Below, one piece after another: positions 1,888-11,329 of a DNA stretch of 11,329 nucleotides. The position numbers and the translations under genes are program-made. Position 1 is the first letter of the stretch. Every line of letters begins with the position of its first letter. The DNA is from a virus. Its lineage: Duplodnaviria; Heunggongvirae; Uroviricota; Caudoviricetes. The DNA is taken from IMG/VR virus record IMGVR_UViG_2648501466_000015, one strand, 5' to 3'. The notes under the pieces are model-generated. The model did not search any database. It saw nothing but the letters and a program-made list of their open reading frames with translations, and was not told where the DNA came from.

Positions 1888-2456
1888 AAACGGGGGCTGA
1901 AGCCATCCGCGCACTGGCCACACAGCTCCCGGCGTTTCGTCAGAAACTGAGCGACGGCTGGTATCAGGTACGGATTGCCGGGCGGGACGTCAGCACGTCC
2001 GGGTTAACGGCGCAGTTACATGAGACTCTGCCTGACGGCGCTGTGATTCATATTGTTCCCAGCGTCGCCGGGGCCAAGTCAGGGGGCGTATTCCAGATTG
2101 TTCTGGGGGCTGCCGCCATTGCCGGATCATTCTTTACTGCCGGAGCCACCCTTGCAGCATGGGGGGCAGCCATTGGGGCCGGTGGTATGACCGGCATCCT
2201 GTTTTCTCTCGGTGCCAGTATGGTGCTCGGTGGTGTGGCGCAGATGCTGGCACCGAAAGCCAGAACTCCCCGTACACAGACAACGGATAACGGTAAGCAG
2301 AACACCTATTTCTCCTCACTGGATAACATGGTTGCCCAGGGCAATGTTCTGCCTGTTCTGTACGGGGAAATGCGCGTGGGGTCACGCGTGGTTTCTCAGG
2401 AGATCAGCACGGCAGACGAAGGGGACGGTGGTCAGGTTGTGGTGATTGGTCGCTGA
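1785..2456 (+). CDS. I: Tail assembly protein I (ubiquitin-like N-terminal region, Gly/Ala-rich hydrophobic C-terminal region), 223 aa
   Basis: ORF 1785..2456, overlapping the 3' end of K by 103 nt in a different frame, as in lambda. Protein MAATHTLPLASPGMARICLYGDLQRFG...GGQVVVIGR is recognised as lambda gpI. Confidence 0.9.
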   Translation: MAATHTLPLASPGMARICLYGDLQRFGRRIDLRVKTGAEAIRALATQLPAFRQKLSDGWYQVRIAGRDVSTSGLTAQLHETLPDGAVIHIVPSVAGAKSGGVFQIVLGAAAIAGSFFTAGATLAAWGAAIGAGGMTGILFSLGASMVLGGVAQMLAPKARTPRTQTTDNGKQNTYFSSLDNMVAQGNVLPVLYGEMRVGSRVVSQEISTADEGDGGQVVVIGR

Positions 2457-2474
2457 TGAAAAACGTTTTATGTG

Positions 2475-2494
2475 AAACCGCCTCCGGGCGGTTT
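2475..2494 (+). other. Perfect 8-bp stem-loop in the I-J intergenic spacer (AAACCGCC-TCCG-GGCGGTTT)
   Basis: Seen directly: 2475-2482 AAACCGCC is the reverse complement of 2487-2494 GGCGGTTT, 4-nt loop; followed by TGTCATTT. The T-run is mostly inside the stem, so termination is doubtful; could be an RNA processing or stability element. Confidence 0.3.
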
Positions 2495-2516
2495 TGTCAT
2501 TTATGGAGCGTGAGGA

Positions 2517-5500
2517 ATGGGTAAAGGAAGCAGTAAGGGGCATACCCCGCGCGAAGCGAAGGACAACCTGAAGTCCACGCAGTTGCTGAGTGTGATCGAT
2601 GCCATCAGCGAAGGGCCGGTTGAAGGTCCGGTGGATGGATTAAAAAGCGTGCTGCTGAACAGTACGCCAGTGCTGGACAGTGAGGGGAATACCAACATCT
2701 CCGGCATCACGGTGGTGTTCCGTGCCGGTGAGCAGGAGCAGACACCGCCGGAGGGGTTTGAATCCTCCGGCTCCGAGACGGTGCTGGGTACGGAAGTGAA
2801 ATATGACACGCCGATCACCCGCACCATTACGTCTGCAAACATCGACCGTCTGCGCTTTACCTTCGGCGTGCAGGCACTGGTGGAAACCACCTCAAAGGGG
2901 GACCGGAATCCGTCGGAAGTCCGCCTGCTGGTTCAGATCCAGCGTAATGGTGGCTGGGTGACGGAAAAAGACATCACCATTAAGGGCAAAACCACCTCGC
3001 AGTATCTGGCCTCGGTGGTGGTGGGTAACCTGCCGCCGCGCCCGTTCAATATACGGATGCGCAGGATGACGCCGGACAGCACCACAGACCAGCTGCAGAA
3101 CAAAACGCTCTGGTCGTCATACACCGAAATCATCGATGTGAAACAGTGCTACCCGAACACGGCACTGGTCGGCGTGCAGGTGGATTCGGAGCAGTTCGGC
3201 AGCCAGCAGGTGAGCCGTAATTATCATCTGCGCGGGCGCATTCTGCAGGTGCCGTCGAACTATAACCCGCAGACGCGGCAATACAGCGGTATCTGGGACG
3301 GAACGTTTAAACCGGCATACAGCAACAACATGGCCTGGTGTCTGTGGGATATGCTGACCCATCCGCGCTACGGCATGGGGAAACGTCTTGGTGCGGCGGA
3401 TGTGGATAAATGGGCGCTGTATGTCATCGGCCAGAATTGCGACCAGTCGGTGCCGGACGGCTTTGGCGGCACGGAGCCGCGCATCACCTGTAATGCCTGG
3501 CTGACCACACAGCGCAAGGCGTGGGATGTGCTCAGTGATTTCTGCTCGGCGATGCGCTGTATGCCGATATGGAACGGGCAGACGCTGACGTTCGTGCAGG
3601 ACCGACCATCAGATAAGGTGTGGACCTATAACCGCAGTAATGTGGTGATGCCGGATGATGGCGCGCCGTTCCGCTACAGCTTCAGCGCCCTGAAGGACCG
3701 CCATAATGCCGTTGAGGTGAACTGGATTGACCCGAACAACGGCTGGGAGACGGCGACAGAGCTTGTGGAGGACACGCAGGCCATTGCCCGTTACGGTCGT
3801 AACGTCACGAAGATGGATGCCTTTGGCTGTACCAGCCGGGGGCAGGCACACCGCGCCGGGCTGTGGCTGATTAAAACGGAACTGCTGGAAACGCAGACCG
3901 TGGACTTCAGCGTGGGTGCGGAAGGGCTTCGCCATGTACCGGGCGATGTCATTGAAATCTGCGATGATGACTATGCCGGTATCAGCACCGGCGGGCGCGT
4001 GCTGGCGGTGAACAGCCAGACCCGGACGCTGACGCTCGACCGTGAAATCACGCTGCCATCCTCCGGTACCACGCTGATAAGCCTGGTTGACGGAAGTGGC
4101 AATCCGGTCAGCGTGGAGGTCCAGTCCGTCACCGACGGCGTGAAGGTAAAAGTGAGCCGTGTTCCTGACGGCGTTGCCGGATACAGCGTGTGGGGGCTGA
4201 AGCTGCCGACGCTGCGCCAGCGACTGTTCCGCTGCGTGAGTATCCGTGAGAACGACGACGGCACGTATGCCATCACCGCCGTGCAGCATGTGCCGGAAAA
4301 AGAGGCCATCGTGGATAACGGGGCGCACTTTGACGGCGACCAGAGCGGCACGGTGAATGGTGTCACGCCGCCAGCGGTGCAGCACCTGACTGCCGAAGTC
4401 ACCGCAGACAGCGGGGAATATCAGGTACTGGCGCGCTGGGACACACCGAAGGTGGTGAAGGGCGTGAGCTTCCTGCTCCGTCTGACCGTAACAGCGGACG
4501 ACGGCAGTGAGCGGCTGGTCAGCACGGCCCGGACGACGGAAACCACATACCGCTTCACACAACTGGCGTTGGGGAACTACAGGCTGACAGTCCGGGCGGT
4601 AAATGCGTGGGGACAGCAGGGCGATCCGGCATCGGTATCGTTCCGGATTGCCGCACCGGCAGCGCCGTCTCGGATTGAGCTGACACCGGGCTATTTTCAG
4701 ATAACCGCCACGCCGCATCTTGCGGTTTATGACCCGACGGTACAGTTTGAGTTCTGGTTCTCGGAAAAACGGATTGCGGATATCAGGCAGGTTGAAACCA
4801 GCGCGCGTTATCTTGGTACGGCACTGTACTGGATAGCCGCCAGTATCAATATCAAACCGGGCCATGATTATTATTTTTACGTTCGCAGTGTGAACACCGT
4901 TGGCAAATCGGCATTCGTGGAGGCTGTCGGTCAGCCGAGTGATGATGCATCAGGCTATCTGGATTTTTTCAAAGGCGAGATAGGGAAAACCCATCTGGCT
5001 CAGGAGCTGTGGACGCAGATTGATAACGGTCAGCTTGCGCCTGACCTGACTGAAATCAGGACGTCCATAACGGATGTCAGCAATGAAATAACACAGACCG
5101 TCAATAAGAAACTGGAAGACCAGAGTGCAGCGATCCAGCAGATACAGAAGGTTCAGGTTGATACAAATAATAACCTGAACAGCATGTGGGCAGTGAAGCT
5201 GCAGCAGATGCAGGACGGACGCCTTTATATTGCGGGTATCGGTGCCGGTATTGAGAACACCCCTGACGGCATGCAGAGTCAGGTGCTGCTGGCAGCAGAC
5301 AGGATTGCGATGATTAATCCTGCGAATGGCAACACAAAGCCGATGTTTGTTGGTCAGGGCGATCAGATATTCATGAATGAAGTGTTCCTGAAACGCCTGA
5401 CGGCCCCCACCATTACCAGCGGCGGTAATCCTCCGGCATTTTCCCTGACATCAGACGGGAGACTGACGGCGAAAAATGCGGATATCAGTGGCAGTGTGAA

Positions 5501-6014
5501 TGCGAACTCAGGAACGCTCAACAATGTCACGATTAACCAGAACTGTACGATTAAGGGCATGCTGGAGGCGACCCAGGTCAGAGGAGATTTCGTTAAAGCT
5601 GTATCAAAAGCCTTCCCGAAAAAAGTCGGTACGTGGGGTAACACGGAAACACCAAACGGGACGGTTACAGTCACCATCAGCGATGATCATAACTTTGACC
5701 GCCAGATTATTATTCCGCCCATTATTTTTAACGGTATAGCGTATGACGATCCGGGGAGCGGAAATAACCCAGGAGGCACGCGATACACGGGTTATGGTTT
5801 TGAAGTTCGCAAAAACGGCGTATTAATCGCATCCAGAGAAACTAAAGGGGCCATTCCCGGTAGTTACAGTGCAGTTATTGATATGCCGAGTGGCAGGGGA
5901 AGCGTCACTCTGGAGTTTAAGATTTTCCAGAAAGGCAATCAGGGGGCAGGCAATATCACCGACTGTACGGTGATTGTGACCAAAAAAGCCGCTTCCGGCA
6001 TCAGTATTCGTTGA
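2517..6014 (+). CDS. J: Host specificity protein J (tail tip central fibre), 1165 aa
   Basis: ORF 2517..6014 with GAGG at 2511-2514 before the ATG. The N-terminal ~800 aa ([34 protein letters not shown]...) are recognised as near-identical to lambda gpJ, including a fibronectin-III-like segment (~4370-4660). The C-terminal ~330 aa diverge from lambda J as I remember it. Confidence 0.95.
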
Positions 6015-6031
6015 AATATTTATAACCCCAA

Positions 6032-6059
6032 TAAAGGGCGTCAGGAATGACGCCTTTTT
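6032..6059 (+). terminator. Rho-independent terminator downstream of J (tJ-like)
   Basis: GGCGTCA (6036-6042) / loop GGAA / TGACGCC (6047-6053) followed by TTTTTT (6054-6059); preceded by AAA, so possibly bidirectional. Confidence 0.7.
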
Positions 6060-6084
6060 TATTGCAGAAAAGCGAGAGGTAATT

Positions 6085-6684
6085 ATGCGTAAAGTTTGTG
6101 CAGCAATTTTGTCCGCAGCCATTTGTCTGGCCGTATCCGGTGCGCCTGCATGGGCGTCTGAACATCAGTCCACGCTGAGCGCGGGGTATCTTCATGCCTC
6201 GACGAACGTCCCCGGCAGCGATGATCTGAACGGGATTAACGTGAAATACCGTTATGAGTTTACGGACACACTGGGGCTGGTGACGTCATTCAGCTATGCA
6301 GGAGACAAGAATCGCCAGCTGACCCGTTACAGCGATACCCGCTGGCATGAAGATTCCGTTCGTAACCGCTGGTTCAGCGTAATGGCGGGGCCGTCTGTGC
6401 GCGTGAATGAATGGTTCAGCGCGTATGCGATGGCGGGTGTAGCTTACAGCCGTGTGTCGACTTTCTCCGGGGATTATCTTCGCGTAACTGACAACAAGGG
6501 GAAAAAGCACGATGTGCTGACCGGAAGTGATGACGGTCGCCACAGCAACACGTCTCTGGCGTGGGGGGCTGGCGTGCAGTTTAACCCGACCGAATCCGTG
6601 GCCATTGATATTGCTTATGAAGGCTCCGGCAGTGGTGACTGGCGCACTGACGGTTTCATCGTGGGTGTCGGTTATAAATTCTGA
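6085..6684 (+). CDS. lom: Lom-like outer membrane beta-barrel protein (Ail/Lom/PagC family), 199 aa with predicted signal peptide
   Basis: ORF 6085..6684 with GAGAGG (6073-6078) upstream. N-terminal signal peptide MRKVCAAILSAAICLAVSGAPAWA; C-terminus AIDIAYEGSGSGDWRTDGFIVGVGYKF recognised as identical to the lambda Lom C-terminus; internal GINVKYRYE and SAYAMAGVA conserved, predicted loops divergent. Confidence 0.88.
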   Translation: MRKVCAAILSAAICLAVSGAPAWASEHQSTLSAGYLHASTNVPGSDDLNGINVKYRYEFTDTLGLVTSFSYAGDKNRQLTRYSDTRWHEDSVRNRWFSVMAGPSVRVNEWFSAYAMAGVAYSRVSTFSGDYLRVTDNKGKKHDVLTGSDDGRHSNTSLAWGAGVQFNPTESVAIDIAYEGSGSGDWRTDGFIVGVGYKF

Positions 6685-10147: not shown

Positions 10148-10722
10148 TGGCATTCAGAATGAGTGAACAACCACGGACCATAAAAATTTATAATCTGCTG
10201 GCCGGAACTAATGAATTTATTGGTGAAGGTGACGCATATATTCCGCCTCATACAGGTCTGCCAGCAAACAGTACCGATATTGCACCACCAGATATTCCTG
10301 CTGGCTTTGTGGCTGTTTTCAACAGTGATGAGGCATCGTGGCATCTCGTTGAAGATCATCGGGGTAAAACGGTTTATGACGTGGCTTCCGGCGACGCGTT
10401 ATTTATTTCTGAACTCGGTCCGTTACCGAAAAATGTTACCTGGTTATCGCCGGAAGGGGAGTTTCAGAAGTGGAACGGCACAGCCTGGGTGAAGGATACG
10501 GAAGCAGAAAAACTGTTCCGGATCCGGGAGGCGGAAGAAACAAAAAATAACCTGATGCAGGTAGCCAGTGAGCATATTGCGCCGCTTCAGGATGCTGCAG
10601 ATCTGGAAATTGCAACGGAGGAAGAAATCTCGTTGCTGGAAGCATGGAAAAAGTATCGGGTATTGCTGAACCGTGTTGATACGTCAACTGCACAGGATAT
10701 TGAATGGCCAGCACTGCCGTAG
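10147..10722 (+). CDS. tfa: Tail fibre assembly protein Tfa (fibre chaperone), 191 aa
   Basis: ORF 10147..10722, start overlapping stf stop (TAATG at 10145-10149). Protein [34 protein letters not shown]... recognised as lambda Tfa / TfaR-TfaQ family. Confidence 0.9.
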
Positions 10723-10819: not shown

Positions 10820-11230
10820 TTATATGTCAGGTGTCTGAAGTTTTGCTTTGGCTCTTAAAATGGTTTGCCGCGAGGTTTTGAATTCCCGGGCAATGGCACT
10901 TATACTTACACCTGACTTAATTCGTTCGAATACCGCCTGTTTCTGTTCTTCATTTAACACAGGTGGTCGACCAAAACGTTTCCCTGCGCCGCGGGCTCTT
11001 ACTATCCCGGAATGAGTGCGTTCAAGTAAAAGGTCTCGTTCAAATTCAGCGACTGCTGAAATTACTTGCATCATCATTTTTCCTGTTGGACTGGTCAGGT
11101 CAATGCCCCCCAATGCTAAGCAATGCACTCTGATACCTGTTTCGGTCAGTTGTTCCACTGTTTTCCTGATATCCATTGCATTACAACCAAGGCGATCCAG
11201 TTTTGTCACAATCAATTGATCACCACATTT
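10820..11230 (-). pseudogene. pin: Serine-recombinase DNA invertase (Pin/Gin/Hin family), 5'-truncated: only the C-terminal ~136 codons remain; catalytic N-terminal domain absent
   Basis: Minus-strand frame reads (KCGDQ)[85 protein letters not shown]...KLQTPDI, recognised as the C-terminal two-thirds of PinR/PinQ-type invertases. The only start in the ORF track is a TTG at 11215; the frame closes with a stop at 11261-11263 and no frame upstream encodes the catalytic-serine motif. Confidence 0.8.
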
Positions 11231-11329
11231 TGATCCTACCCACGTAATATGGACACAGGCCTAAGCGAGGTTCTGGTTTTCAAATTGTTCCGGACTGAGG
11301 CCGCCACACCAACTGTGCCGCCGCCACCG
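11231..11329 (-). mobile_element. Terminal ~100 bp of an IS3-family insertion sequence (IS3-like right end), inserted into pin; element continues beyond the window
   Basis: Plus strand from 11231 reads TGATCCTACCCACGTAATATGGACACAGGCCTAAGCGAGGTTC..., which I recognise as the IS3 terminal inverted repeat (5'-TG terminus) and adjacent sequence. Recognition is from memory, not a database search. Confidence 0.75.
11261..11329 (-). CDS. IS3-family transposase OrfB, C-terminal 22 codons plus stop (3' partial fragment; rest outside window)
   Basis: Minus-strand frame reads RWRRHSWCGGLSPEQFENQNLA then stop (TAG, complement of 11261-11263), the conserved C-terminal tail of IS3-family OrfB transposases, ~30 nt from the element terminus. 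Confidence 0.65.
   Translation of the reverse strand, partial: RWRRHSWCGGLSPEQFENQNLA

Follow-up and report, generated by a model that had tools for sequence, protein, structure and literature searches.

What has become of the invertase gene at the right-hand end of this prophage, and does its interruption freeze a tail-fibre switch or change anything else for the prophage and its host? The window, by which we mean the whole stretch of 11,329 bp analysed here, is an entire draft contig (JHSE01000160.1, assembly GCA_001265835.1) that terminates 99 nt into a copy of IS3; it stops there because short-read assemblers break contigs in multi-copy insertion sequences (ISs). A first-pass annotation had described a pin gene cut by an IS3-family element, the loss of its catalytic serine and, if the prophage ever had one, a tail-fibre switch that is now locked. 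The best explanation of the whole, and in our judgment a very probable one, is a simple insertion: IS3 (1258 bp) would have transposed into codon 61 of a pinQ-type gene, at the tail-fibre end of a lambdoid prophage residing at the DLP12 site. The two halves of the junction are the following.

10820 to 11230, minus strand: 3' part of a gene for a small serine recombinase of the pinQ type, of which codons 61-196 remain with the stop at 10822-10820 (from the translation and from identity to the intact gene)
11231 to 11329, minus strand: IS3 right end, first 99 of 1258 bp (99/99 to IS3 copies; 98/99 to the curated K-12 IS3A)
11231 to 11269, no strand: terminal inverted repeat at the right end of IS3, TGATCCTACCCACGTAATATGGACACAGGCCTAAGCGAG; it is about 39 bp long and agrees with the left repeat at 28/39 positions (ends of the reference copy, L002 2001-3258, compared)
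11261 to 11329, minus strand: last 22 codons of the IS3 OrfB/InsF transposase (RWRRHSWCGGLSPEQFENQNLA) and the TAG stop (from the translation and the IS3 annotation)

The breakpoint itself is unambiguous. Up to position 11230 (...ACATTT) the window is base for base the same as an intact gene of 196 amino acids from a complete E. coli genome (L001 3721-4311). Beyond that position the intact gene goes on with CAGGCG and the window with TGATCCTACCC. Since no bases are shared across the switch, the breakpoint lies exactly at 11230/11231, where the first-pass annotation had put it.

To the right of the breakpoint, an alignment of positions 11231-11329 bears out the proposed IS3-family terminus and narrows it further. 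The identity to the end of 1258-bp IS3 copies is complete (E = 8e-44, in thousands of E. coli records), and the curated IS3A of K-12 MG1655 differs by a single substitution, OrfB reading ...ENQNLA here and ...ENKNLA in IS3A. The window, IS3A, and the reference copy in L002 have three different flanks and diverge directly past the terminal ...GGGTAGGATCA (...GGATCA); as these three copies part at the same base, 11231 is the true IS3 terminus. Judged by these alignments, the element is IS3 itself, beyond mere membership of the family. The transposase stop (11263-11261) sits 30 nt inside the element, as had been claimed, and matches the annotated transposase coding sequence of the full reference copy (1258 bp, annotated with a "programmed frameshift"). 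The 22 transposase residues give a weak rve_2 match (E = 0.002), and the reference transposase from the full copy is recognized by NCBIfam transpos_IS3 (E = 2e-100). Both marks of an IS3 right end are present, namely a terminus (5'-TG) at which homology stops exactly and an OrfB C-terminus close to that end. Within the window, transposase and pin are co-oriented. We also observed that the target DNA before the IS end (window 11217-11243), TGATCACCAC, resembles the IS3 terminus TGATCCTACCCAC found 14 bp later. Some IS3-family elements insert beside sequences that resemble their inverted repeats (IRs); the IR-like TGATCACCAC near this IS3 end could be a coincidence.

To the left of the breakpoint lies a serine recombinase gene, as the first-pass annotation had it, though the name "pin" has to be refined: the gene belongs to the pinQ/pinR type and is distinct from the classical pin of e14. 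Across its remaining 411 nt and their 3' flank, it is 100% identical at the nucleotide level to K-12 pinQ codons 61-196 (528 aligned bases), and the intact sibling protein is identical to K-12 PinQ at 196/196 positions. Read on the minus strand from 11329, the translation runs from the transposase end and its stop through ten linker codons into the pin remnant, which ends in ...AKLQTPDI and its stop. The remnant covers positions 64-144 of the 145 in the Pfam Resolvase profile and retains HTH_7 (E = 1.2e-11); in other words, the C-terminal part of the catalytic domain, helix E, and the DNA-binding domain are kept. Missing from the window copy are residues 1-60 with Arg9 and the catalytic Ser11 (YCRISTLDQ), both of which are present in the intact homologue. 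The closest solved relative of PinQ is the Gin invertase (E = 1.6e-29), and when the two are aligned the nucleophile falls on Ser11. The window copy has the HTH_7 domain and the orthology to K-12 pinQ expected of such a recombinase and lacks the N-terminal part of the catalytic domain, which carries the serine nucleophile (YxRxST motif), so the claim that the catalytic serine is gone stands. With the region of Arg9 and Ser11 lost, no active recombinase can come from this copy. A side observation concerns residues 71-77 of PinQ (window 11183-11203, minus strand), which read LDRLGCN, as against LDRLGR in Gin and gamma-delta/Tn3 resolvase; PinQ has Cys at the equivalent of the conserved catalytic Arg71, a surprising residue in an enzyme with reported activity.

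The interrupted gene is not peculiar to a single assembly. The window's J-like protein of 1165 aa is recorded in this exact form for one contig only, JHSE01000160.1 itself, and the pin/IS3 junction recurs at 100% identity in four other drafts, in JHRK, JHRN, JHRQ, and JHSI contigs (same accession series; the four assemblies, in order of their numbers, are GCA_001265435.1, GCA_001265495.1, GCA_001265545.1, and GCA_001267355.1). The JHRK, JHRN, and JHRQ contigs show 0 differences from the window, and the JHSI contig shows 9 single-nucleotide polymorphisms in 10.5 kb. Given the same junction at full identity in four more drafts, the junction is real, and the pinQ::IS3 allele has been inherited within one E. 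coli lineage represented by five drafts. Outside these drafts the junction occurs in 0 of 5,426 complete E. coli genomes, and it was not found in GTDB species representatives, IMG/VR viral contigs, or JGI metagenomes.

Two smaller points belong to these drafts. All nine differences between the window and the JHSI contig (L027, JHSI01000053.1) fall within the I, J, and lom genes (window 2063-6567) and may reflect recombination or the collapse of paralogous prophage copies in the draft assemblies. The left end of the window is intragenic as well: it contains the last 37 codons of an open reading frame (ORF) that precedes the gene for the minor tail protein and, to go by synteny with an intact locus (L003), is presumably the tape-measure gene. 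Both ends of the window are probably assembly breaks induced by repeats.

How, then, did IS3 come to lie against codon 61? Under a simple insertion, the element would be flanked by a short target-site duplication, of which the window would contain one copy.

11228 to 11230, no strand: TTT, the 3-bp target-site duplication that is predicted here (read on the pin strand it is AAA, the codon of Lys61; inferred from the 3-bp repeats of nearby IS3 copies)

The other junction is predicted to read ...GGGTAAGATCA-TTT-CAGGCGAGC... (alternatively given as ...GGGTAAGATCA-TTT-CAGGCGAGCAAGC..., or as GGGTAAGATCA followed by TTTCAGGCGAGCAAGCAACC). There, pin codons 1-61 (...ARLK) would run straight into the TGA that opens the IS3 left end. 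Public records list a product of exactly this kind, made up of pin residues 1-61 with a stop behind them, for 35 contigs. It is compatible with the predicted fragment and not specific to it: the contigs with the 61-aa product far outnumber the five drafts with the pin/IS3 junction, and a mutation of codon 62 from TGT to TGA, or the end of a contig, could produce it as well.

Indirect evidence for a simple insertion comes from other genomes. Three further complete IS3 copies lie at most about 1.1 kb from the window site, in ydfK, at the pinQ 3' end, and in the tfa-pinQ spacer.

L035 5781-7038, L037 1303-2560, and L038 1303-2560, in the window's orientation: nearby IS3 insertions (NZ_CP025842.1, NZ_AP031375.1, and NZ_AP022095.1)

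All three are flanked by clean 3-bp direct repeats (TGG, GTA, and TAC). They lie at other positions than the insertion in the window and represent independent events, and both of their junctions are seen, whereas the window offers one. As a separate observation, the flanks of the ydfK insertion (L035 around 5781/7039) are without 9 bp, TTCCACTAC, that are present in intact ydfK (L001 4765-4790); this is either an allelic polymorphism of three codons or a small deletion that accompanied the insertion.

The rival that survives best takes the junction for the endpoint of a rearrangement mediated by IS3, be it an adjacent deletion or recombination of one IS3 copy with another (resulting in a deletion or an inversion). 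In that event, the 5' part of pin, and possibly ydfK-ynfT together with the prophage end, would have been lost or moved elsewhere. Recombination partners are at hand, as the number of matches to this IS3 end per E. coli genome has a median of 3. A single junction is visible, given that the contig ends in the IS, and the reciprocal one was absent from all collections searched: looked for as the IS3 left end, 0-8 bp, and CAGGCGAGC, it was not found in viral contigs, metagenomes, or species representatives, and a synthetic 123-nt query against the complete E. coli genomes matched only the nearby, different IS3 insertions. That absence says little, however, as these collections are without the other contigs of the five drafts. 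Moreover, the complete nearby IS3 copies are simple insertions with 3-bp duplications in three cases out of three, and the predicted N-terminal fragment exists exactly in public assemblies. Because of these last two points we favor the simple insertion and regard a rearrangement as unlikely.

We next turn to the tail-fibre switch. The prophage is a common lambdoid element at the DLP12 (appY/ompT) side of the chromosome. Its genes usually run ...L-K-I-J-lom-stf-tfa-pin(-)-ydfK(-)-ynaM(-)-methyltransferase(-); next comes either appY or a gene for an alpha/beta-hydrolase, with ompT behind it. A single stf-tfa set lies between lom and pin in every intact locus and in the window, and none of them has a second, inverted set. 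The pin gene is convergent with tfa (their 3' ends face each other), and its 5' end faces ydfK and adjoins no invertible segment. Inverted repeats in the intact locus do not rise above chance level. With up to 3 mismatches allowed, neither the window nor L003 contains the e14 crossover repeat, TTGGTTTGGGAGAAGG. The Din-type crossover core, AAACCNNGGTTT, is likewise missing from the window at up to 1 mismatch.

A functional switch would show two inverted stf/tfa sets, inverted crossover sites, and an invertase whose 5' end adjoins the segment, and none of the three is present at this locus. An invertible segment was considered and rejected for want of crossover sites, with repeats at chance level, a single stf-tfa set, and pin convergent with tfa. 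The prophage thus seems to have no tail-fibre switch that IS3 could have locked, and this part of the first-pass annotation finds no support. Polar effects on the tail genes would not be expected either, because pin is the last gene on its own strand and converges with tfa. The 3' part of tfa also holds a full-length Rfam match to RF02111 "IS009" (window 10490-10688, plus strand; 220.5 bits, gathering score 117), which despite its name is a candidate small-RNA family and no insertion sequence.

The published activity of PinQ lies elsewhere in the genome. PinQ is reported to act in trans on prophage e14, whose P segment of 1797 bp it inverts (Kirigo et al. 2025, PMC12529663); according to the study, this inversion creates a chimeric StfE2 that blocks the adsorption of phage T2 (PMC12529663). 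The same study found no inversions within Qin or Rac and reported that PinQ is only 38% identical to PinE (PMC12529663). The consequence in the present lineage would be the loss of one copy of a trans-acting invertase. If the PinQ-driven inversion of e14 P and the resulting T2 resistance hold, the lineage is short of one copy of that activity, and the effect would depend on whatever further pin copies the genome carries and on its e14.

IS3 is not the only cause of damage to this gene. In other E. coli samples, an IS4-family element cuts a pinQ-type gene at codons 43-45.

L016 1-81 and L025 1135-2740, also L028-L030 and L033, strand not given: IS4-family hit in the pinQ-type gene (402-aa transposase)

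The termini of this element look like those of IS10. It is flanked by a 9-bp direct repeat, GGCTCAGCA, and is therefore an independent simple insertion. Five further loci (L017, L018, L020, L022, and L024) have the pinQ locus at full length and without an IS, with the gene called at 118 aa or split into 76 + 112 aa. Such shortened or split calls imply point or frameshift mutations in the 5' part, that is, further independent decay.

One may go further and suppose that the pinQ-ydfK end of Qin/DLP12-type prophages is a preferred landing zone for IS3, and that the knock-out of PinQ is recurrent and possibly selected, altering the flipping of the e14 P segment and the StfE2-based defence against T2. 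The idea draws on four independent, co-oriented IS3 insertions within 1.1 kb and on the one IR-like TGATCACCAC; we consider it very unlikely as a whole. The clustering of IS3 near pinQ may reflect a regional preference or merely insertions that are tolerated.

Could the remnant itself still matter? Read-through from IS3 might yield a C-terminal fragment of 112-131 aa (helix E and the HTH) able to bind to crossover sites or to poison the other copies of Pin, and in-frame internal starts for it do exist.

10820 to 11158, minus strand: residual ORF of 112 aa with a GTG start at PinQ residue 85 (gene call on JHSE01000160.1; ORF list)

Gene callers choose this GTG at 11158 in the window; other internal starts are a TTG at 11215 (131 aa) and an ATG at 11176 (118 aa), the sibling contigs being called at 118 aa. 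An exact look-up of the 131-aa product with the TTG start gave nothing on record. HTH_7 is intact, and the co-orientation of IS3 and pin would suit read-through. On the other hand, a search for an outward promoter at the IS end revealed no convincing or strong promoter-like site facing the remnant at the junction; folding is unlikely without the N-terminal half of the catalytic domain; and other lineages inactivate pinQ in unrelated ways, which looks like neutral decay. We thus give hardly any credence to an active fragment: the residual ORFs of 112, 118, and 131 aa are probably annotation debris, and a functional product is unlikely.

An assembly artefact at the pin/IS3 join, where mis-joined repeat reads would have made a chimeric contig end, has next to no probability: although 99 nt separate the join from the end of its contig, and the draft was assembled from short reads, five separately deposited assemblies share the identical junction with contig ends at different offsets inside IS3 (89, 92, 93, 94, and, for the window, 99 nt), and the switch falls exactly at the true IS3 terminus, as expected of transposition and not of a random mis-join.

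For the five assemblies, the appropriate annotation of the locus is a pinQ pseudogene interrupted by IS3, and the repeat accounts for the contig break. The case is of an already known kind: both parts are known at or near 100% identity, and the disruption of prophage accessory genes by ISs is routine. Only the exact insertion site is particular to the lineage. It illustrates the routine decay of prophage accessory genes and is of little importance beyond annotation.

Set beside known systems, each component of the locus has a close counterpart. With IS3 as known from K-12 MG1655 (IS3A, insE1/insF1), the window shares the terminus and the OrfB stop 30 nt from the end; the location, pinQ codon 61, is new, and the remaining 1159 bp of the element lie outside the window. 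With PinQ and PinR, from the cryptic K-12 prophages Qin and Rac, the interrupted gene shares its neighbors tfa, ydfK, and ynfT. Unlike K-12 pinQ, it is cut after codon 60/61 and accompanies a full-length tail module at the DLP12 site and not at Qin. The systems Mu G/Gin, P1 C/Cin, and e14 P/PinE have in common with it the fold and family of the enzyme and a position beside tail-fibre genes. In contrast to the Mu G, P1 C, and e14 P switches, the prophage in the window carries a pinQ-type gene next to a single fibre set, without a second, inverted one and without crossover repeats of the e14 or Din type.
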